From contig JBEKOM010000001.1 in NCBI GenBank assembly GCA_049521795.1, forward strand, positions 480,001 to 544,000: a DNA stretch of 64,000 nt. The letters are read 5' to 3'. The notes beneath the pieces are model-generated. The model did no database searches. It saw only the letters and a list, made by a program, of their open reading frames with translations, and was not told the DNA's origin. Positions 1 through 11,478 of the stretch are shown here, one piece after another. Position numbers and translations under genes: made by a program. Position 1 is the first letter of the stretch, and each line of letters begins with the position of its first letter. The DNA is from Candidatus Bathyarchaeia archaeon. GTDB taxonomy: Archaea > Thermoproteota > Bathyarchaeia > Bathyarchaeales > Bathycorpusculaceae.

Positions 1-622
1 CGAGCGTTTCTTCTCTTTGCTTGCTCACTATGGATATGACCATCGGCGCGGTGCGTCTCGTTTGTTCGTCAAACTCTTTCAGCGTTTTAGGTGTTATCTT
101 CTCTATCGTGTTGGGGTATCCTGTAACAGGGTGGCCTAGACGGTTCCGTGGGAACGCTGCTTCCCAAACGTTTGTCATCGACGCTGTCATCGGGTCTTGC
201 ATAATCTTCTCGTACGCGAGTCTTTGGGAAGCCTTTTCTTTGTCAAGTTCTGACCTTGGAAAAGACGGAAACGCGTACAGTTCAGCTAGGAGTTTGAGGC
301 ATTCTTCTAATTTCTTGGAAGGAACCTGGGCCCGGAGAAGCATATAATCTCGGTCAGTCAGAGCCTCGACCGTTGCGCCTAAGCGGTCCAATGCCGCCTG
401 CAAAGCCAGAGGGCCAAGTTTCGATGTCAGCCTCAAACGCATGGAGTTGTCTGTGCACGCGCAACCTTCTATGGGGTCACTGTAGGAACCTCTTCCGACA
501 AGAAACACAACTGATGCAGAACGCAGAAACCCGTTAGAAAGCGCAACGACGTTGACTCCTTCTGAAACCTCCCTGACCAGAACTGGAAAAGCGACCACCC
601 GCCACCTTTTTCTTGAAGCCAT
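1..622 (-). CDS. M16 (insulinase/pitrilysin) family peptidase-like protein, probably non-catalytic subunit; runs off window start
   Basis: Manual translation from ATG 622: ...ASVVFLVGRGSYSDPIEGCACTDNSM...LDRLGATVEALTDRDYM...FPRSELDKEK...LGHPVTGYPNTIEKITPKTLKEF. M16 pattern, but HxxEH is absent. Not in ORF track because it is open at the edge. Confidence 0.7.
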   Translation of the reverse strand, partial: MASRKRWRVVAFPVLVREVSEGVNVVALSNGFLRSASVVFLVGRGSYSDPIEGCACTDNSMRLRLTSKLGPLALQAALDRLGATVEALTDRDYMLLRAQVPSKKLEECLKLLAELYAFPSFPRSELDKEKASQRLAYEKIMQDPMTASMTNVWEAAFPRNRLGHPVTGYPNTIEKITPKTLKEFDEQTRRTAPMVISIVSKQREETL

Positions 623-642
623 TCCTCTAAAAGCTTTTTCTC

Positions 643-654
643 CAGCGCGCGCTG
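643..654. repeat. (CG)4 palindrome CAGCGCGCGCTG at the left boundary of accessory patch 1
   Basis: Perfect 12-bp palindrome, 6 bp past the stop of the PLD gene and just upstream of the M16 gene start. Confidence 0.85.
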
Positions 655-660
655 CTTTCT

Positions 661-1782
661 CTATGGAAGAGTTTTGAGAAGATATTTCCAGAGCCAAGCC
701 TCTTCTACGAGTTTGAGGGTTCCTTGTTTTCCCAACGTGTCGACAATTCTCTGATCAGTTCTGCCCGGCCATTGCTTGTACCATCTGTATTTCACTTTGA
801 TTCGATGAGCATAACTGATACGTCCAGTCTCTTCATACATGTATTCAGGCTCTGCTTCTACTTCAGCGATTCCTAAAACTCTCGATTCCGAATACACGAT
901 GAAGACGTCGCCCTTTGAGATTTCGTTTCTAAAGGCCCATAGCTGTTTTGTTGTGTAGTTAACGTCGGTTTCTCTAGGCCAAATCTTATTCCAAATTTCT
1001 TCGGCTGTTTTGTCTACTGCTTCTCTGAGTTGGTCTTTGGTTTTGAAGTTGCCCAGATTGCCAATTTCATTCCATCCCATTGCCACGATTCCCTCCCCGT
1101 CTTCGTCGATTGCTTGAACCCATTCATCCCAGCAATTTGCGTCTTTGCCAGGAGCGATTTTCCAAATTTTGTTCGGTCTCATACTCTCCAGTTCATATCG
1201 CCTCAGCCTTGGAGATGGTAAGTCGTCTTCATTTGAAGTGCCATAGGGAGTTGTCTCAGTTCTTTGAGTGAAGCGGCGTTCGTATTTATCAACGTCCTTC
1301 CTCTTCAGAGGAGGTGCTGTGTCAAAGTAATCCGAGAAGAACTGCTCTGCGTTCTTTATGACCTCAGGTTCCGGATCTTCTACCAGAATGTTGGCTTCAG
1401 CGTTCGTGCTCTGCGCGGGTTCGGTCAGATTTGCTGAGCCTACGACGATGGATGTGGGGTTGCCGTGGAATATAAGTAGTTTCGGATGGAAACCACAGGA
1501 ATTCCATTTTCTGACGATGACATTGTTCTGTTTTGAGAGGTTCAGTAGTGCTTGAGCTGACTCTTTATCGGTTATGGCATATCGACTTGAAAGGCCGAAA
1601 ACGATCCTAAACGATCCGTTCCTTTTGAGCAGCGAATTGACACTCTTCATCAGGGTTTGCAGTCCGCCTATTTTGACGTATGCCATGGCTACGTCAAGGC
1701 TTGATGATCTTTGAAGTAATGCGGGCAGCTTGTAGGCGAGTGCAGGTCCGTCGAGAAATTCAACCTTCATGATTTGCCCCAC
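661..1782 (-). CDS. PLD (HKD)-family nuclease fused to a C-terminal EVE/PUA-like domain; putative modification-dependent restriction endonuclease
   Basis: HPKLLIF...VGSANLT...N.EAN PLD nuclease motif; C-terminal WKIAPG...WDEW...IVAMGW...GDVFIVY...VLGIAEV...HRIKVKY resembles McrB-N/EVE-like readers. Confidence 0.75.
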   Translation of the reverse strand: MGQIMKVEFLDGPALAYKLPALLQRSSSLDVAMAYVKIGGLQTLMKSVNSLLKRNGSFRIVFGLSSRYAITDKESAQALLNLSKQNNVIVRKWNSCGFHPKLLIFHGNPTSIVVGSANLTEPAQSTNAEANILVEDPEPEVIKNAEQFFSDYFDTAPPLKRKDVDKYERRFTQRTETTPYGTSNEDDLPSPRLRRYELESMRPNKIWKIAPGKDANCWDEWVQAIDEDGEGIVAMGWNEIGNLGNFKTKDQLREAVDKTAEEIWNKIWPRETDVNYTTKQLWAFRNEISKGDVFIVYSESRVLGIAEVEAEPEYMYEETGRISYAHRIKVKYRWYKQWPGRTDQRIVDTLGKQGTLKLVEEAWLWKYLLKTLP

Positions 1783-1879
1783 CGAATCCAGAGAAATTAG
1801 TTGGTATCAATTATCATATATTGTTAGCTATTTGGGGACGCCGAGTTCTCAGAATCTCAACGCGGAATGTAAGCGTGTC

Positions 1880-2140
1880 GCGCGCGCTAAGCTTCAATTG
1901 CCCTTTGTACTTTTTCTCCGTCCAATATTTCGCTGATTGTTCAGAATCAACCATCATTTGAGGTTCAGAAGTGATATCAACGACTGAATAGATCCCGCTT
2001 TCTTTTCCGGACATCCAAATCAGACCGATATGGCCGCGTGGATTTTCGTGTTTGTAGCGGCTGACAAGCCAAACGTCCTCAACCATGGCCTCGTCTGCAT
2101 GAGCATTGAGAACGTCATATTTCAGCGGGTTCGACTGATG
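1880..2140 (-). pseudogene. EVE-domain remnant, truncated at both ends
   Basis: HQSNPLKYDVLNA...DVWLVSRYK...LIWMSGKESGIYSVVDITSEP is EVE-like. It is preceded in frame by TAG, and homology ends at the CGCGCGCGC at 1879-1887. Confidence 0.65.
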
Positions 2141-2223
2141 CTAAAGTGAGCGCACTAGCCTTAGGTTCATCGGTGATGTGCATGCGACGATAATGTTCAA
2201 ATCCATGTGTCCGACAACTCATT

Positions 2224-3651
2224 ATGCGTGATTTGAGTTTGACGGAGATATCGTCTATAAAGCCAGATCTACAGTTTGGACCGCGATTATTTGTCAGCTA
2301 TTCGCATGAAGACAGGGGATTCGTGAACAGGTTGGCACTCGACCTCAAGTCTCGAAATGTCGACCTCTGGATGGATATGTACGAGATAAAGGGGGGAGAG
2401 TCAATTCTACAGTCGATAGAGGATGCAATCAAACACACTGACATCTTTCTCGTTGTTTTGTCTGCACACTCCCTGAATTCAAAATGGGTTCATAATGAGC
2501 TACTCATGATAAGTCAACTAGTAATCACGCAGGAGAAGATCCTAATCCCTATAGTTGCAGATAAGTGCGACGTACCCCTATTTCTAGCAACACGCAAATG
2601 GATCGACTTCGCACATCAATATGAACTTGCCCTGAATGAGCTATTATCGTCTTTGGAACATTGGGGACTTTGGAAAAAAGACAAGGTGCTAGGTGCAATG
2701 TTAGAAGATCTAGAAAAGAAAGAATCCTCTGAGAAAGGACTCTCAAATGGCTACACGGCGATTGGCAGAATCGCTTTTCAGATAGGCTTGTATGGCGAGG
2801 CAAAAGAGATCCTAGAAAAAGGGATGAGACTTGACCCAACCAACTCCGACCCTGTTCATTTGCGAGCGATTGTCCTGATAAAGTGCGGTCAGTTCACAGA
2901 GGCAGAGGCCATTCTTAGAAACCTAAGTTCCGAAGGTCCCCAAAAAGAGCGAGCATTTTTCAATCTTGCTTGTCTCTATTCTAGATGGGCCCAGGTGGCT
3001 GGTGACCAAGATCGTCGCATACGTGAAAGATGCTTGAAACAATGTTATGAAAACTTGACCAAAGCGTTCAGATTCAAAATTGTAGAATGGCTAAAAACTT
3101 ATGGGCATCGAAGAGATCCTATGGGAGACATACTAGGAGATCCTGACCTAGCTTATGGCATAAGAGCATATCCTAAAATCGAGAAATATCTGAAGATCAA
3201 AGCAAGGCAATATAGGCATCGATGGTCAGCTCGGCAGGTCTGCGGAGGCGGCGGAGGTTGTCTAGTGGGGCAAGCGAAGGTCCTCTTGAAAGGGGGAAAA
3301 GAAATTCCAATCGAAGACATACGCTGCGGACAAGAAGTAGTCAGCAACACTATTGGGAACAACTCTCAAGTTTCAATGATTTGGAGAAAAATGCGATCTC
3401 TGGCTGACCAAGGTGTATGCATAAACAACAAATTAACAACAACTAATGGACAGCGAATTCTCACGACCAAAGGTTGGCAAGAAGCTGATCAACTTCACGT
3501 AGGAGACATGATGTTAGGCCCTGGAAGAAGGACTGAAAGAATCCGAAAAATCGAAAGATGGATCGGTGCTCGAGCTGTCTTCCAACTCGGTCTAGAGGGC
3601 AGACCATTTTTCACAGCCGACCAGGTTCTAGTACATAACCTTAAAGATTAA
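2224..3651 (+). CDS. TIR - TPR - poly-Gly - Hint (intein-like) fusion protein
   Basis: TIR: FVSYSHED...WMD..EIKGGESI...FLVVLS..SLNSKWVHNEL. TPR: AKEILEKGMRLDP, AFFNLACLYS. Then GGGGG|CLVGQAKV...IPIEDIRCGQEV...KGWQEADQLHVGD...ADQVLVHN-LKD, a Hint domain at 3259-3639. Confidence 0.85.
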   Translation: MRDLSLTEISSIKPDLQFGPRLFVSYSHEDRGFVNRLALDLKSRNVDLWMDMYEIKGGESILQSIEDAIKHTDIFLVVLSAHSLNSKWVHNELLMISQLVITQEKILIPIVADKCDVPLFLATRKWIDFAHQYELALNELLSSLEHWGLWKKDKVLGAMLEDLEKKESSEKGLSNGYTAIGRIAFQIGLYGEAKEILEKGMRLDPTNSDPVHLRAIVLIKCGQFTEAEAILRNLSSEGPQKERAFFNLACLYSRWAQVAGDQDRRIRERCLKQCYENLTKAFRFKIVEWLKTYGHRRDPMGDILGDPDLAYGIRAYPKIEKYLKIKARQYRHRWSARQVCGGGGGCLVGQAKVLLKGGKEIPIEDIRCGQEVVSNTIGNNSQVSMIWRKMRSLADQGVCINNKLTTTNGQRILTTKGWQEADQLHVGDMMLGPGRRTERIRKIERWIGARAVFQLGLEGRPFFTADQVLVHNLKD

Positions 3652-3948
3652 TAGCGTGCGCTTTAAGAAAAAAGAAGGGGTTGTGCGGAATATCGTGGAG
3701 ATATCTCCACTTGGATGTGCAAATGGGAATTTACATTCTCGCGCGCATACGCTAAGTTGAGATGGACCTGCACGTCTGCGACTGCGATATGCCCATTCTG
3801 ACTCAAATCAAATTGCGCGCTAGGAAACGACAAAAAGGAGCAAGAGGCCCATAATATCGCGCTCTAATCTGGGCTTGGGTTCTCTCCCAACCTATTTATT
3901 TCTCCCCAACAAAATGAATCATGAAAAGGATTCTAGGAGTAGAGACAT

Positions 3949-4932
3949 TTGGAAATCAAAGAGCCGTATAACACTGGTGTCGAAGAAGTGTTCTCGAACT
4001 TCTCAAAAGATCCTTGTCTTGGGAAACATTGTGTAATCGAATGCCCAGTGGGCTTCACATGCATTCGTGCTGTGCCTCCACGTTCAGGGGAGTTCAGACT
4101 AGATCTCAGTCTCTGCAACTTGAAATGCCCCTTTTGTTGGACCATCAACAAGCCACACCCATGGTATTATGGAGAGATATTTGAACATGTCAAGTGCAGA
4201 TTCGACAAGTTCTGCAGGTCGAATTTGAATGTTAGCATAGGATATCTGAGGATTACTGGGGGAGAGCCCATTTTAACGGAGGGAAGAGCACGTCATCTGC
4301 TTAGCCTATTTCAGTTGATAGATGATGACCTGAAGCGGGAAGATTTCTATGCGATTTGGAAGACCAGAAAATCACCTGAGAACTTGGAGGGGAGAAAAAA
4401 CATAAAAATCCAAACGAATGGGATAACTATCTCAAAAATCGTGGACCTTTTCGTTGACAAGCTGATCAGTTTCAAAAACATATCTCTAACGTTTGAGGTA
4501 TCATTGAAAGGAACCAATCCATATGAGTTTCAAATACTGTCAGGTGGGTTCCCGAGTGAAAGATTCTTCGAACAGATAAAGGCAATAGATAGATTGTTGG
4601 ACTGTGAAGATCAAGGTTTCCCAGTATTCGTCCGGGGTATTCTCGGAATCTTTCACAGTGCTCAATATGATCTAGTCTTTGAAGAAAACGGAAAGAGGAT
4701 GATGCTAGATCCATGCAGAGAGTTCAAGAAAATCGTCAGTAGACTTCAAAGTATGCCAAGATGTCGGGAACGAGTATATGTGGAACCATTGAGGTTTACT
4801 GCCCAAATGAAAGAAGCAGAAGAGACATGTAGAAATCTAAGAATCGTTGCAGACTCGAGAGTTGGCAGGTATATCAAACCAGGAAAGAAGATTCGTCTCA
4901 AAGACACATATTTGGAGAAAATGCTGAGTTAG
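3949..4932 (+). CDS. Radical SAM protein of unknown function
   Basis: CNLKCPFC (CxxxCxxC), RITGGEP, IQTNG, FEVSLKG; extra N-terminal Cys cluster; AGGAG upstream of the TTG start. Confidence 0.85.
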   Translation: MEIKEPYNTGVEEVFSNFSKDPCLGKHCVIECPVGFTCIRAVPPRSGEFRLDLSLCNLKCPFCWTINKPHPWYYGEIFEHVKCRFDKFCRSNLNVSIGYLRITGGEPILTEGRARHLLSLFQLIDDDLKREDFYAIWKTRKSPENLEGRKNIKIQTNGITISKIVDLFVDKLISFKNISLTFEVSLKGTNPYEFQILSGGFPSERFFEQIKAIDRLLDCEDQGFPVFVRGILGIFHSAQYDLVFEENGKRMMLDPCREFKKIVSRLQSMPRCRERVYVEPLRFTAQMKEAEETCRNLRIVADSRVGRYIKPGKKIRLKDTYLEKMLS

Positions 4933-5091
4933 ACGCAGGTCAATGGTGCGATCCGAGCGACAAGCGAACCACTTCGCGCGCTATGCAAAGAAACGCGCGC
5001 GCTCGTTTAGTTCTTCATTCGTGTATCCCATAAATGTTCCCTCATAGCAACTTATTTATCTACAACTTTAAATGTTTTAAAATGATGACAT

Positions 5092-5352
5092 ATGCCGAGA
5101 AAATTTAAGGTTGAAAAGGCTCATTGTAAGCGTCACGATGTGAATTTTGAAAAGCTTATCCAAGCTAGGGTTTCATGTCCCCGATACCAGCAATGTCGAG
5201 AAGAGGCAATCGCACGCCATGAAGGCAATATCGCTGAGGCTAAACAAGAAGCAGAAAAGAAAGGAAGACCGTTGGTGGCGGTGAAAGCTGTTCTTCAGAT
5301 AGTGTGTCCTTACGAAGAACCGACGCAAGATATTCCTGAACATTTTCCATGA
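5092..5352 (+). CDS. Small Cys-containing hypothetical protein
   Basis: ATG ORF of 86 aa after an AT-rich promoter-like tract; C..H, CP...C and CP residues. Confidence 0.55.
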   Translation: MPRKFKVEKAHCKRHDVNFEKLIQARVSCPRYQQCREEAIARHEGNIAEAKQEAEKKGRPLVAVKAVLQIVCPYEEPTQDIPEHFP

Positions 5353-5402
5353 ATCTCCCTGGTCATTCGAGTAGGAGGAGCTTAAAGGGTCAATTGACAG
5401 GG

Positions 5403-5764
5403 ATGTTAGGTTCTCTTGACAAGATGTTCGAAAGTCTGACGGCTCTGCTAGCTTTCATGGTCGCAGCGATACTTGGTATTCTTTTCTGGATGGTTAAGAC
5501 TCCGAATGATTTTTGAATATTATTGAGGTTTGCGGCTTCATTGGTCGTCCCATTTATCGTAATGGTTCTTTTCTGGTTTTGGACCGCCCTCACTTCGACA
5601 GAAGAAATGAAAATTCGTCTGAAGTTGATTGCTTGGAGTAAGCTATCATTCATCTTTATGTATTATGTTGTGATTTTCTCAGTTCTTGTCTTGCTGAAAC
5701 TGATAGCAGACTTCCCAATATTGAGTGCATTCGTACTCATGGGAATAGTGACTTTGGCGCGCGC
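5403..5764 (+). pseudogene. Membrane protein pseudogene (in-frame TGA at 5514-5516; 3' end cut at a (CG)4 site)
   Basis: ATG 5403 MLGSLDKMFESLTALLAFMVAAILGILFWMVKTPNDF*ILLRFAASLVVP... continues in frame into track ORF 5523-5771; hydrophobic helices end at GCGCGCGC 5757-5764. Confidence 0.6.
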
Positions 5765-6402
5765 TTGTTAAACGGCGTTCTATCTTTCCTATCATAATTC
5801 CTCAGGTCAATTAAGAGAACCTTCTTATGAGAAAGCCATGCTGTTAGAAAATCTCTCACGAACTGTCGTCTTCCTTTCACACCGCCTAATCCAGCGTCAA
5901 AAACCTTCAATAACGACAAACCAGTAGGCATTTCAAACTCTCTTATCTCCCCAGTCTTCTGGAAATGTATGATAGCTCGAACTTGATATTCTGGAAGCTT
6001 CTTAAGAAGAATCTCCACTGGATTCGTAAACGCCAAATCTTCGCCACTCACAAACCTACAGAGTATCTCATTCAAGAAACGCACATACAGTTTCCCAGAA
6101 GGACTGTCCCACAAAGGCTCGAACTGTTGAAAGAAAGCTTCCGTGCCTAACCATTGAGTTGAAACAGCTTCGTCGCCAAAAAAGTTCTCAAACGCATTTC
6201 TAAGCGCGGTTTTTCCAATTCCCTGTTGACCCATTACAGCTATGAATTGCGAATTTTGAGTAGCTAAATCGTTTCTCAAGTCCTCAGTCGCTTGAGTCCA
6301 ATAATAATTTGAATTCCAATTGTCTTCTGCTCTGGTATGTCGCGCCCACGCATATTGCTCTTCGTATCTAATTATCTGACTAATTCCAGAATTTGTTTTC
6401 AT
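5757..6402 (-). pseudogene. P-loop NTPase, 3'-truncated just after Walker B
   Basis: Walker A GQQGIGKT and Walker B VLLID; the frame reaches the (CG)4 at 5757-5764 about 14 codons later and stops. Confidence 0.65.
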
Positions 6403-6473
6403 TTTTGCAGAGGGGTTAGAAGGGTTTGGAGGCCCAGAATCGTCTTCGTATCCAATTATCTCTGGAGATTTTT

Positions 6474-6803
6474 CTATTGTTGATTAGATGCCACTTTCTT
6501 ACTTCCCGTTTTATCCTCTGTGGCAACGAAATGTTTTTCTGGGATTGGATAGATACTTAGATGCGATTTGTCATTATCCCCATCGTCAACATCCATAACA
6601 GAGTGTATGTCTTCCTGCAACGCTTGTCGCTGTTTCTCCGATAGCTCTCTGTCCTCAGAATCTTCATTCATCTTCCGCCTTTTGTCTAGCAGCTCAAGCA
6701 AGCGCCTTTCTTGCTCCTGACTTCTTGTTTCTGTTGGCATTTTAGACAAAAGGTCAAGTTCCTTCTCGTCTGAATCCGAGAAATGGAAAGGCCTACTACT
6801 CAT
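6474..6803 (-). CDS. Acidic/coiled-coil hypothetical protein; possibly the frameshifted N-terminus of the downstream NTPase
   Basis: ATG 6803 after GGTGGGGTGG; the NTPase frame is open from about 6483 (STIEKSPEIIGYEDD...MKTNS). Confidence 0.45.
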   Translation of the reverse strand: MSSRPFHFSDSDEKELDLLSKMPTETRSQEQERRLLELLDKRRKMNEDSEDRELSEKQRQALQEDIHSVMDVDDGDNDKSHLSIYPIPEKHFVATEDKTGSKKVASNQQ

Positions 6804-6978
6804 TGCCACCCCACCTTGGTATGAGCACGCCCTAGGCACTGACGACCGTAAGTCTGACAAATGTGAAAAGAAAAGGAGGGGATTGCGCGGGAGATGTCGC
6901 CACAGTGCTTAAGATAAAACTTTACCCCCAAACCCAAAATAGAAATATTTTTCAAATAGCTATTCATACGTAGCTTGT

Positions 6979-7323
6979 ATGGAAACCGAAGATTCTGAAA
7001 TAAATTGCCCTTTTTGCAAGACGCCTATGACCGAAGGATACGCTTCGCTGCAGGGCGCAATCAACGCCGTGGTCTATTTCAGCAAAAAGAGCATGTCGTG
7101 GGGACCAGGATTATTGTCAGCGTTAGGCAAAGAAAGAGAAACGATACTTGACAATATTTCTTCGCAGGAACACGCGAGACCAGCTTACAAATGTGATAAC
7201 TGTAATGCTGTTCTCCTCAGAGGAACGGCAAGTCCGACACAGGCTGATTATGCCGAGGCTAAAGACCTTGAAAAAGAAAAAGAAGATTTGCGGGACAACG
7301 TTCGCATGATGCAAGGATTCTAA
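6979..7323 (+). CDS. Zinc-ribbon protein (PF20097/DUF6487-like)
   Basis: CPFCKTPMTEGY...AYKCDNCNAVL. Confidence 0.7.
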   Translation: METEDSEINCPFCKTPMTEGYASLQGAINAVVYFSKKSMSWGPGLLSALGKERETILDNISSQEHARPAYKCDNCNAVLLRGTASPTQADYAEAKDLEKEKEDLRDNVRMMQGF

Positions 7324-7581
7324 TAGCTTTGCACGCGATAGCGTGTCTATAGGGTGGGTGGGATAAAACTTTGCCCTTTTTCTTCTTGTTCCTCTACTTC
7401 TCTTGTTACTATTAATTATCTCTCTTGCTTTCCTACACCTTGGCACAAACATAAAAACAAAAACAAGAAAAGACAGACACGGACGGACATACACGTAGAC
7501 AAAGTTGAAATAGGAAGTGTTCAGTGAAAGACACATTGACTGAACGTATCATTTAGAGGCTTGGGCAGTTCGGTGATATTT

Positions 7582-7623
7582 GTGATTGATGCTGAGAATC
7601 TGACAAAGAGATTTGGCGATCTG
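7582..7623 (+). pseudogene. N-terminal remnant of an ABC transporter ATP-binding gene
   Basis: GGTGA RBS, then (V/M)IDAENLTKRFGDL; homology is lost after that. Confidence 0.5.
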
Positions 7624-8035
7624 GACAGAAAAGAGCTCAATATAACGCCTTTTTCTTTCCGCAACCTGTTAGTTGACGAAGATCTCAATGAGAGCTAGTC
7701 ATGAAGTCCTCCGATTCTGAGTTCCCTTGCCTGTCCTTCTTGACATAGCAAGCGCCCTTGTTGCGTTTCTTATGTTTTTTGGGACGCGAGCGCGCACGTG
7801 AAAAACGAGGGAGAAATGAAGGGAGAAAGGAGAAAGGAAAAGTTTTCTCCCACGCATTTCATTAAGTTATGAAGTGTCAATCTGCGATTTAATTCTACGT
7901 TTTTGTACGCGTGTGCAAACGATTTGAACAGCGCGCGCTTTCCGACGACCGTGCGCGCAGAAGAAAGCCACTTTCTCGAGCCCGCGCTATACTTTATTAT
8001 ACTGGAAGAAAGGCAAAAAACTGGAAGGACGCGTT

Positions 8036-9361
8036 TTGGGGAAAGCGAAGAACGCTCGGGAAAGTTGGCAGAGTGCGGCCCAAACTCCGGATCTACAGAG
8101 TGGATCAGAGAGAACAAAGCACGGCGCCTGGGTCAATGCTGTTCTTCCCTTTAACGTCGCCTTAGGGCCTGTTGGAACTCTAATTCAGCTTCTCATACTC
8201 AACCTGCACGGAACGGTAATTGATGTTGGCTTAGCTGTCACTCTTTTCAACGCGGTCAGTGTGCCCTCCGCAGTAGTGTGGGGTTTTGTCACAGATCGCT
8301 TCCATAGGAGAAAGACGATAATCGTCGTAAGCTACTTGGTGACAGCTGGGGTTCTGGTTTCGTTTCTTTTTGCAACCACAGGATACGTTGTTTCATTGCT
8401 GTACGCGTTGTTTTCGTTTGTATCGTCCGCTTCAACGACGCCGCTGAATCTTCTCATCATGGAGACGGAGAGCAAGCAGAAGTGGGCGACCGCCTTCGCC
8501 AGGTTCTCCATGATCACGAGCATCGGCAACACTGTGGGGTTGATGCTGAGCGTGGCTTTGGGATTTTTCTTTTCTTTGAATTACCTCGTGCTTCTTTTGG
8601 CTATTCTCACCGTAGTATCTGCGGTTCTTGCTGTGTTGATGATACAGGAGCCCAGCGTGATCTTCGAGCGAAACGTCATCGTGTTGAACAAACCGAGCTT
8701 CTTCCAGCGGCTTCAAGCTGTCCCTTTATTCTTCCTCAGGGTTCCCCGTTTGAGCGATTTCAGAAGAGTTTTCAGGAACCTAAGGTACGAACTTACTCGA
8801 CAGATGCCTATTCTCTACTTCTCAATCTTCATGTTCTACTTCGCGTCGGGACTCTTCAACACTTCAATTGTTGCCTCTCTGCAGGCGAATAGCCTTTCCA
8901 GCTTCCTGATTTTCCTCGTCATGACTATAATGATGCTGGCCCAGATAGTGGCGTTCAAGTATTCGGGACCTTACACTGAAAAGAGGTCGCTGGTGAAAAC
9001 ATCTGTGGAAGGGCTCGTGCTCAGGTCCGCATGTTATGGGGTTCTGGGAGTGTCATTGTACATGATTTCTGGACTGTGGTTTTTGATTCCTGTCTTGATT
9101 TTCTATCCACTCGGGGCAGGTGTTGCCTTCTCGCTGTATTACACTGCGTCCAACACGATGGTGTTCAACACGCTTAGCGGGGCGAGGCAGGGTCAATCCT
9201 TAGGAGTGTACAGTGCACTTGTGGGAATCGCCAGTCTTGTGGGTTCGGCGGTTTCAGGGTTTACGTCTTTTTTCCTCGGCTTCTCCACGACATTCATCCT
9301 AGCTGCTGCGTTCATGGGATCATCCGCATGGCTTGCCTCATTACTGGAGCATTCTAAATAG
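8036..9361 (+). CDS. MFS transporter
   Basis: About 12 TM helices; motif A WGFVTDRFHRRK. Confidence 0.9.
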   Translation: MGKAKNARESWQSAAQTPDLQSGSERTKHGAWVNAVLPFNVALGPVGTLIQLLILNLHGTVIDVGLAVTLFNAVSVPSAVVWGFVTDRFHRRKTIIVVSYLVTAGVLVSFLFATTGYVVSLLYALFSFVSSASTTPLNLLIMETESKQKWATAFARFSMITSIGNTVGLMLSVALGFFFSLNYLVLLLAILTVVSAVLAVLMIQEPSVIFERNVIVLNKPSFFQRLQAVPLFFLRVPRLSDFRRVFRNLRYELTRQMPILYFSIFMFYFASGLFNTSIVASLQANSLSSFLIFLVMTIMMLAQIVAFKYSGPYTEKRSLVKTSVEGLVLRSACYGVLGVSLYMISGLWFLIPVLIFYPLGAGVAFSLYYTASNTMVFNTLSGARQGQSLGVYSALVGIASLVGSAVSGFTSFFLGFSTTFILAAAFMGSSAWLASLLEHSK

Positions 9362-9519
9362 CGCGAGCAGAGACAGACAAAGAGAAACAAAAACTCAAAT
9401 TCTAACTACTCTTACCGTTCAGACCACATAAAGACTAAATTCTGCCAGCAGTTCATTCGCGCGCGCTAATTGTAAATTGGAAATCGATTGAAAATGAGCT
9501 TTTTCATCCACCGTAGATT

Positions 9520-11220: not shown

Positions 11221-11478
11221 TGTTGAAGCATGCCTCAGAATGAACGTTTTTGTTGGTTCATATTTGGATCCAAATATCCATGGTACGTTGAAACCTAGGA
11301 GGGGTAGATCCCTCCCGTCAGGAAGAGAAAGTGCGACTATGGGTTTGCGCTTGGAAGCCGGGGATGGTAGTTGGACCCTAGGGCGCGGGCTAGGGGCCAT
11401 CTGGCACGTTGTGTTCAGGATTCGGACAGCAAATAAGAAATAAAAACAGGAGGATATATAGAACGTGGGGCAACGGGT

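Follow-up and report, generated by a model that had tools for sequence, protein, structure and literature searches.

The stretch of DNA analysed here (the window) comprises 64,000 nucleotides (nt) of contig JBEKOM010000001.1 (positions 480,001 to 544,000, forward strand; assembly GCA_049521795.1) from a Candidatus Bathyarchaeia archaeon. It carries a gene for a protein that joins a TIR domain, a helical TPR adaptor, a run of glycines and a C-terminal Hint domain, the last followed by only three residues (Table 1). The window also encodes thermosome, aIF-2, RLI, and HdrA2, and the assembly (2.44 Mb) is 98.75% complete. An earlier reading of the letters alone (the original prediction) had called this open reading frame (ORF) a putative self-processing immune protein; every element that it listed was found in the sequence, at the positions collected in Table 1.

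Table 1. The TIR-TPR-Hint gene, its parts and its surroundings (positions in the window; aa, amino acids)
Feature	Position (nt)	Strand	Details
TIR-TPR-Hint ORF	2224..3651	+	475 aa, ATG start; TIR, TPR/helical adaptor, polyGly, Hint, LKD
TIR domain	2290..2646	+	residues 23-141; TIR_2 (PF13676) E=1.7e-26, 93.5 bits against a cut-off of 28
WVHNE motif	2485..2499	+	Glu92 at 2497..2499
Helical TPR adaptor	2671..3228	+	residues ~150-335; ends in a TPR cap; motifs FNLACLYS (246-253) and DPMGDILGDPDL (298-309)
polyGly junction	3241..3258	+	Cys340 and Gly341-Gly345; putative scissile bond Gly345-Cys346
CGGGGGCLVG	3241..3270	+	Cys346 at 3259..3261
Hint (BIL-like) domain	3259..3639	+	127 aa, Cys346-Asn472; block B T407-N-G-Q410; block G His471-Asn472
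Cys368	3325..3327	+	in 'CG[DQE]'
TTTNGQ	3436..3453	+	Gln410 codon 3451..3453, in the place of the block-B His
VHNLKD and stop	3631..3651	+	+1 is Leu473
C-terminal tail	3640..3651	+	Leu473-Lys474-Asp475 and stop; Lys within +1..+4 conserved
Accessory island	~654..7745		~7.1 kb; carries the TIR-TPR-Hint gene; absent from the site in the closed same-genus genome G001
PLD-family nuclease	661..1782	-	PLDc_2 E=1.8e-11, RE_NgoFVII E=4e-6; PDC-S02 E=1.6e-12, DrmC E=9.5e-8
90-aa ORF	1814..2086	-	weak EVE-domain match, E=0.095
Radical-SAM-like protein	3949..4932	+	CNLKCPFC; Radical_SAM E=2.1e-5 (below cut-off); pVip E=9.5e-4 (weak)
Repeats	6865..6939, 7352..7494, 7877..7933, 11238..11391		26-150-nt matches in same-genus genomes

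The fusion is not an assembly artefact, because a contig from another public sequencing run (X2) is identical to the window over 3216-3726 (0 differences, junction bridged) and because six metagenomic proteins have the same architecture (P0002, P0003, P0011, P0014, P0015, and P0021; 34-54% identity to the window protein). The possibility that the gene is a one-off chimera, or that its homologues do without the Hint domain, fails on the same six full-length proteins, all of which retain it. The family is rare: its clusters are singletons or doubletons, and their annotation goes no further than 'TPR repeat protein' or 'hypothetical protein'. No RNA data set is among the sequencing runs listed for the gene. 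The closest homologue (P0002, 54% identity) has extra residues before its TIR domain (1 to ~95) that resemble a winged-helix DNA-binding domain and may be either a real fusion or the product of a mis-called start.

The TIR domain scores far above the TIR_2 cut-off, and the glutamate that had been placed at the catalytic position (Glu92) is invariant in the seven proteins. Its aligned counterparts are the Glu of '...nyEl' in 8g83_A (titled NAD(+) hydrolase AbTIR) and that of '...qkEl' in PdTIR (3h16); we take this Glu to be the catalytic residue of TIR NADases. Matches of this part in the PDB include AbTIR, PdTIR, Cat1, and TIR-APAZ, and the PADLOC TIR models that match the protein are PDC-S66, Aga TIR, bSEFIR, and ThsB. 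With the NADase glutamate intact, the domain looks like an active enzyme.

The TPR repeats proposed downstream are supported by three Pfam models above their curated cut-offs within residues 176-242 (TPR_19, 32.3 against 25 bits; TPR_8, 28.5 against 25.7; TPR_17, 27.7 against 24.4). Residues 161-330 are all-helical in the first AlphaFold2 model, with block means of the predicted local distance difference test (pLDDT) between 67 and 96. The adaptor ends shortly before CGGGGG, which the translation places directly ahead of Cys346 as had been described. Prediction of a complex between the adaptor (residues 150-336) and the Hint domain (residues 340-475) scored 0.24 (mark, 0.32).

The Hint domain itself could be traced in the translation from Cys346 to His-Asn472 with only LKD after it, in agreement with the original prediction; the two departures from intein motifs noted there are equally plain. 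Leucine, and not Cys, Ser or Thr, stands at +1, and in the TxxH motif of block B the Thr is kept (Thr407) and the His is replaced by Gln410. The domain is divergent enough that Pfam Hint models fall short of their thresholds (Vint, E=0.021; Intein_splicing, E=0.03), and the PT-HINT and Hint_2 models do not match the protein at E<=0.1. The best PDB sequence match of residues 335-475 is the NpuDnaB mini-intein (4o1r_A), aligned end to end at E=0.0051 with VHN on VHN. Among 1.84 billion representative proteins, a profile built from the three closest Hint regions matched 3,893 with E<=1e-3, of which 454 had E<=1e-10.

Structure prediction gave a clearer assignment. AlphaFold2 modelled the Hint domain alone (37-row alignment) with a mean pLDDT of 93.6 and a predicted template modelling score (pTM) of 0.87. 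Foldseek found 62 PDB matches to this model at E<=1e-3, and those listed are BIL, intein or Hedgehog Hint domains. The top matches (6y75 and 6tmm; query-normalised template modelling score, TMq, 0.80-0.83) are BIL2 of Tetrahymena BUBL1, with 6y75 at TMq 0.83 and E 8.3e-10; below them rank mini-inteins (Ssp and Npu DnaB, gp41-1), the BIL domain 2lwy of C. thermocellum (TMq 0.80) and Hedgehog 1at0 (0.69). Structural neighbours in the ESM Atlas are PT-HINT proteins. The model thus identifies the C-terminal domain as a Hint fold of the BIL type.

The conserved unit is larger than the Hint domain. A group of 15 proteins (25-54% identity to the window protein) shares a TPR cap, a polyGly junction and a Hint domain behind N-termini that differ by Pfam: TIR_2 and TPR in seven, including the window protein; TPR only in P0019; a caspase-like Peptidase_C14 domain in P0059; Mrr_cat in P0093, P0099, P0102, and P0109; and no Pfam match in P0111 and P0119. 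Alignment of the TIR family profile with the caspase fusion P0059 (hhalign, 99.0% over columns 238-469) and with the Mrr fusion P0099 (99.2% over columns 205-468) carries the homology upstream of the Hint domain into the TPR cap, and the adaptor from residue ~205 onward is homologous to the region that precedes Hint in both kinds of fusion. Shared upstream motifs in the alignment of this module are [YF]-x-L-[AE]-A-C and a D-P/E-[DE]-L cap.

In comparative-genomics practice, a constant C-terminal part joined to interchangeable N-terminal killing domains is taken as the usual mark of conflict systems, in which sensing or regulation falls to the constant part and execution to the variable one; prokaryotic immunity is known to use TIR, caspase and Mrr domains as death effectors. 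A conserved unit that takes in the TPR cap and also occurs in the caspase and Mrr fusions reframes the Hint domain as a probable regulatory module for interchangeable effectors. Two observations favour a TIR domain that destroys NAD+ over one that makes a signal: a caspase or nuclease can stand in its place, and the island encodes no receiver of the ThsA, SAVED or CARF type.

The junction residues are retained throughout the group. Cys1, the terminal His-Asn pair and a Thr or Ser at block B (position B7) are found in all 15 proteins and Gly at -1 in 14; a Lys lies within +1..+4 in every member, at +1 or +2 in 14 of them. The +1 residue is Ser in one protein (P0015) and Cys or Thr in none. This retention of Cys1, block-B Thr/Ser, His-Asn, Gly(-1) and the tail Lys suggests that the catalytic set of the Hint domain is under selection. 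An alignment of the seven TIR-TPR-Hint proteins gives Glu92, Gly342, Gly345, Cys346, Cys368, Arg391, Asn401, Gln410, His471, and Asn472 among the invariant positions. Two of these, Cys368 and Arg391 (in 'WRKMR'), are absent from the caspase and Mrr fusions; the second cysteine raises the possibility of redox control of Cys346 through a Cys346-Cys368 trap.

The Gln of block B sets the group apart. To place it, a census was made of the best 150 of the 3,893 profile matches together with the earlier proteins; rescanning with the same profile gave 220 complete domains in 142 proteins, from which motif positions were read off. Gln occupies the block-B position in 13 of the 15 group members and in 1 of the 205 domains outside, 196 of which have His. 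Tails of at most 10 residues after the Hint domain are likewise concentrated in the group (13/15, against 25 of 127 proteins outside). In a FastTree phylogeny of 238 domain rows, built with the Gln column removed, the Gln label needs 6 changes against a mean of 14.7 for shuffled labels, and none of 500 shuffles was as low; the smallest clade holding 13 Gln-type rows has 16 tips, the others being two His-type Mrr fusions and one long-branch row. Since Gln is both concentrated in the group and clustered on the tree, it appears to be a lineage trait and not a sign of decay.

The published intein work bears directly on this substitution. In the cited sections, the block-B His of the Ssp DnaB intein is essential if the N-S acyl shift is to proceed with the native Gly at -1, only bulky -1 residues compensate for its loss, and the Tko CDC21-1 inteins, which naturally do without this His, carry Leu at -1 (Friedel et al., PMC6333167). 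Fast spontaneous processing of the window protein is unlikely, because Gln together with Gly(-1) is the combination found inactive for the shift in that work. With Gln in the position of the block-B His and Gly retained at -1, a slow or cue-dependent shift is to be expected. The simplest way to reconcile reactive residues that are fully conserved with a usual activator that is consistently missing is a latch, in which the Hint domain would be competent yet slow or dependent on a cue.

We tentatively put forward, with confidence a little short of even, a slow or conditional, single-turnover switch that cleaves itself and so controls a death effector. The protein would be a cytoplasmic, single-chain, immune-type protein in which the constant TPR cap, polyGly and Hint domain at the C-terminus control a variable effector at the N-terminus. 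Cys346 would attack the carbonyl of Gly345 (an N-S acyl shift) to form a thioester, for whose resolution water, a small nucleophile and the epsilon-amine of Lys474, the conserved lysine of the tail, are the candidates; cyclisation of Asn472 could then free the Hint domain, as in BIL domains without a +1 nucleophile. This one-time, irreversible loss would allow the TIR-TPR part to self-associate and destroy NAD+, and the infection would be aborted. The shift would be slow or would need a cue, with the Hint domain acting as a latch and not as a constitutive maturation step. Taken as a whole, the tail shared by TIR, caspase and nuclease fusions suggests a previously undescribed one-shot protein switch for cell-killing defence enzymes.

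Several points weigh against such a switch. A Hint domain with Gly(-1) and without the block-B His could be catalytically dead or use different chemistry, and within the group the F-block His has become Pro in 10 of the 15 proteins and the F4 Asp/Asn is replaced in most. That loss of the Hint domain activates the effector, and does not inactivate it, is something that we purely infer. The AlphaFold2 model of the full-length protein (3 sequences) has a mean pLDDT of only 59.6, with the Hint domain below 50 and a weak TIR. An IQ-TREE phylogeny of 70 rows (the 15 members and 55 others, sampled as a single row from each protein; eight long-branch rows were excluded) puts the 15 proteins on one side of a branch whose Shimodaira-Hasegawa-like approximate likelihood ratio test (SH-aLRT) value of 68 is weak support for monophyly; the eight TIR/TPR rows group at 98. 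The census is a selection of the strongest matches, and word-indexed homologue searches did not enlarge it, returning the query alone from 146 candidates for the Hint region and three proteins, all already in the set, from 8,000 candidates for the module alignment. Finally, the neighbourhoods of the window gene and of the P0014 gene (locus L028) are not conserved, so no partner or trigger is indicated.

Much of this would also fit an inert Hint domain, serving in structure, sensing or oligomerisation (for example as a surface bound by the invader), with Cys1 and His-Asn kept for folding or ligand binding. The residues lost from blocks B and F, the pairing of a missing block-B His with Gly(-1) that was inactive in an intein (PMC6333167, cited sections) and the divergence shown by the sub-threshold Pfam scores all speak for it. 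We nevertheless regard an inert domain as unlikely: near-complete retention of Cys1, His-Asn, Thr/Ser and Gly(-1) in three effector contexts would be difficult to account for if no chemistry took place at the junction, and the strict terminal position and very short tail suit a leaving group better than a sensor.

The closest solved structure opens another route. In the parts of the BUBL study cited here, BIL2 forms a Lys-epsilon isopeptide bond, and its upstream ubl domain is conjugated to ubl5 and a Ras GTPase without ATP (PMC8616854). By analogy, a lysine of another protein, from invader or host, could attack the Gly345 thioester, and TIR-TPR would be covalently joined to it by the Gly tail, without E1/E2 or ATP, the TPR selecting the target. 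BIL2 (6y75) is the nearest structure to the Hint model, the same profile retrieves two polyubiquitin-Hint proteins (P0051 and P0143), Gly at -1 makes an unhindered acyl donor and the TPR is a protein-binding fold. Ligation nevertheless seems improbable to us, given that the domain upstream of Hint is not ubiquitin-like, that the Lys conserved in the protein's own tail of 3-9 aa would be a competing intramolecular nucleophile, that a caspase or nuclease tethered to one target molecule brings no obvious benefit, and that the block-B His, key according to the cited parts of the BIL2 report (PMC8616854), is missing. The proposal in the original prediction that an activated poly-Gly is handed on without E1/E2 survives in part, as BUBL BIL2 offers a precedent for the transfer; its likeness to a ubiquitin tail does not extend to the upstream part, which is a TPR and not a ubiquitin fold. 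Sequence does not decide between release and conjugation.

The resemblance to BIL2 of Tetrahymena thermophila BUBL1 is otherwise close, with Cys1, a terminal His-Asn, no Cys/Ser/Thr at +1 (as in BUBL-like matches) and an upstream domain that ends in Gly. There, in contrast, ubiquitin-like domains stand on both sides, where the window protein has TIR-TPR upstream and only LKD after; BIL2 is eukaryotic and keeps its block-B His (H69), whereas the window protein is archaeal and has Gln. Identity with BUBL was rejected, ubiquitin profiles matching P0051 and P0143 and not the window protein, in which the upstream part is TPR.

A more speculative scheme joins both outcomes. The TPR cap, polyGly and Gln-type Hint domain might form a triggered, single-use covalent device of prokaryotic immunity, in which binding of an infection cue to the TPR activates a latent N-S acyl shift and the effector is either released or ligated to an invader lysine in the manner of ubiquitin, though without E1/E2/ATP; we hold this to be quite doubtful. 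In a bolder variant, Gln410, which stands where the His contacts Cys1, could form an internal Cys346-Gln410 thioester like that of complement C3 and alpha-2-macroglobulin.

The wider family shows which traits are peculiar to the group. Among the 220 census domains, Cys1 is present in 219, the terminal Asn in 219, the penultimate His in 213 and the block-B His in 198, with Gln in 14; Cys, Ser or Thr occurs at +1 in 23 and Lys at +1 or +2 in 162. Poly-Gly is no peculiarity of the window protein: Gly stands at -1 in 126 of the 220 domains, and at least three Gly precede Cys1 in 59. The polyGly junction and the missing +1 nucleophile are family-wide traits, not specific to the window gene. At least two complete Hint domains occur in 59 of the 142 proteins. 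The contexts assigned by Pfam in the 52 proteins scanned include pilin-like proteins, TadE, a subtilase, Tim44-like proteins that carry four Hint domains and the two polyubiquitin-Hint proteins, whose junctions read ...LRG(A/G)|CF ... VHN|MQIF[VL]K.

This spread of contexts (pilins, alpha-2-macroglobulins, subtilases, tandem arrays) would suit a Hint domain that is a neutral BIL-type passenger or serves constitutive maturation, cleaving itself off soon after translation or aiding folding, with no part in the sensing of infection and with the TIR domain regulated elsewhere. As far as the cited sections describe them, BIL domains do occur in hypervariable regions of non-conserved proteins and can cleave themselves at either end (PMC7765530). 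On a passenger or maturation role, however, one would not expect a specific TPR cap to travel along across three effector types, nor the rare His-to-Gln change to become fixed (13/15 against 1/205), and the 127-aa domain contains no homing endonuclease or other mobility feature; this account too is, in our judgement, a distinctly poor prospect.

Two further arrangements were met in the census. In five bacterial alpha-2-macroglobulins (P0078, P0117, P0086, P0129, and P0131) a BIL-like Hint domain lies between the bait-region domain and the A2M domain (GGGG|CF ... VHN|[EDQ]KG), placing a domain of self-cleaving type at the bait position of a thioester protein. In others, three or four Hint domains follow one another head to tail as VHN-K-G(2-4)-CF (P0020, P0035, P0083, P0090, P0106, P0155, and others); the two of these that were scanned, P0020 and P0035, have a Tim44-like domain downstream of the array.

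Among known systems, the Hint domain of the window protein appears to work most like an A-type BIL or BUBL Hint, but it lacks their block-B His. A missing +1 nucleophile is reportedly a trait of A-type BIL domains, said to go back to Amitai et al. in 2003 and Dassa et al. in 2004. A-type BIL domains, in the cited sections, have a conserved C-terminal His-Asn and cleave themselves within variable, non-conserved proteins (PMC7765530). The window domain shares with them, and with 2lwy of C. thermocellum, the Hint fold, the N-terminal Cys, the His-Asn and a variable protein as host (here, on an accessory island); unlike them it has Gln in block B, is strictly C-terminal and has a TPR cap and cytoplasmic immune-type effectors as its partners, not secreted or surface proteins.

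Hedgehog/Hog proteins (1at0) offer a second likeness, with a signalling or effector part, a Gly-Cys junction and a C-terminal Hint domain that would cleave at its own N-terminus. Hedgehog Hint domains, to our knowledge, are without the His-Asn end, which the window protein has; the window protein, unlike them, is without the block-B His. A sterol transferase of the Hedgehog type was rejected, no sterol- or adduct-recognition region being present and only three residues following the Hint domain. A true (class 1) intein was rejected as well: Leu473 is no +1 nucleophile, and the three residues after the domain are no C-extein.

Most profile relatives score above the PT-HINT (PF07591) cut-off, and PT-HINT domains, like the window domain, occur in conflict-related proteins. 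The toxin of polymorphic toxin systems reportedly lies C-terminal to the Hint domain and is released by it, an account that goes under Zhang et al. 2012. The window protein was not classed with them: its effector is N-terminal, nothing follows the Hint domain and secretion features are absent.

On the TIR side, the TIR_2 domain with its conserved Glu resembles those of Thoeris ThsB, TIR-APAZ/SPARTA, TIR-STING and AbTIR-like NADases; we know of no Hint domain on any of these effectors. Thoeris pairs a ThsB-type TIR with a ThsA gene of the SIR2/SLOG or Macro kind. A Thoeris system was rejected, the ThsB models matching the TIR part only (E 5.7e-8 and weaker), and the eight island proteins scanned (window 661-7323) include no ThsA-like match and no Argonaute, STING or CARF/SAVED partner. 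In NLRP1/CARD8, an internal self-cleaving domain (FIIND) of an immune protein conditions the release of a death effector. This is an analogy only: FIIND has an unrelated fold (ZU5-UPA) and chemistry, and we claim no homology.

Known Hint domains act as inteins, process Hedgehog proteins, release toxins and, in ciliates, dispense ubiquitin. The architecture had not been recognised from described systems, and our search likewise found no published account of a Hint domain on TIR, caspase or restriction endonuclease effectors, or of such a domain in conflict or anti-phage systems, though a brief mention in earlier surveys is possible; the two Aravind-lab surveys that were examined contain no text on HINT or inteins. 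If the proposed switch is real, protein self-cleavage or self-ligation would join nucleotide signals, STAND NTPases and proteolytic cascades as a means of effector control. A natural Hint domain with Gln for the 'essential' block-B His would be informative about catalysis of the N-S acyl shift, and the Gln-type Hint domain could give a conditional intein-like tool.

The TIR-TPR-Hint gene has the setting of a defence island, a 7.1-kb insertion beside a PLD nuclease that matches defence families. Window ~654-7745 is an accessory insertion, because its flanks nearly adjoin in G001, where window 3-653 and 7746-9506 are matched at 93-94% only ~144 bp apart. Flanking direct repeats were not found around the island, and no integrase was seen within it. 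PDC-S02, a candidate defence family, matches the C-terminal half of the nuclease; as a pair, the nuclease and the short ORF beside it resemble a modification-dependent restriction enzyme with part of a second reader domain. A small P-loop protein and a zinc-ribbon protein are likewise encoded in the island.

The gene looks like a self-contained unit, because its neighbours at L028 differ (a ThsB-type TIR, a receiver domain and a TIR-HATPase) and because the radical-SAM gene occurs in another context: in run X4, a copy ~94% identical is flanked by different sequence on a contig of 7.6 kb, so that the two genes are separable. No match with the full architecture turned up in 40 relatives or, with the profile of the TPR-cap-Hint module, in 400 other genomes of the phylum, where 15 further matches cover the Hint part only, in frames of 563-1,320 aa, and are taken to be ordinary inteins. 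Matches of the family pattern in viral contigs (37) encode no relatives. Locus scans, which used a single TPR pattern, gave 11 loci in genome contigs and 35 in metagenome contigs, of which 10 were examined; the true relatives among these are L028 and the truncated L029 (part of P0021). The eight other open frames, considered as Hint-less versions of the window protein, were rejected as generic TPR proteins with the NLAC...DPDL cap motif.

A second TIR match in the same genome (L007, C20:289-681, minus strand; E=6.2e-29) lies in a 310-aa frame without a TPR or Hint match. Two of the four repeats in Table 1 are close to the right edge of the island; the four recur at many places in same-genus genomes (dozens of matches, 83-100% identity). 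In four metagenome runs the contigs there have loose ends to the left and right, and their summed depth is very high, as much as 332x where neighbouring sequence has ~3-7x. They are probably dispersed repeats, either regulatory or resembling miniature inverted-repeat transposable elements (MITE-like).

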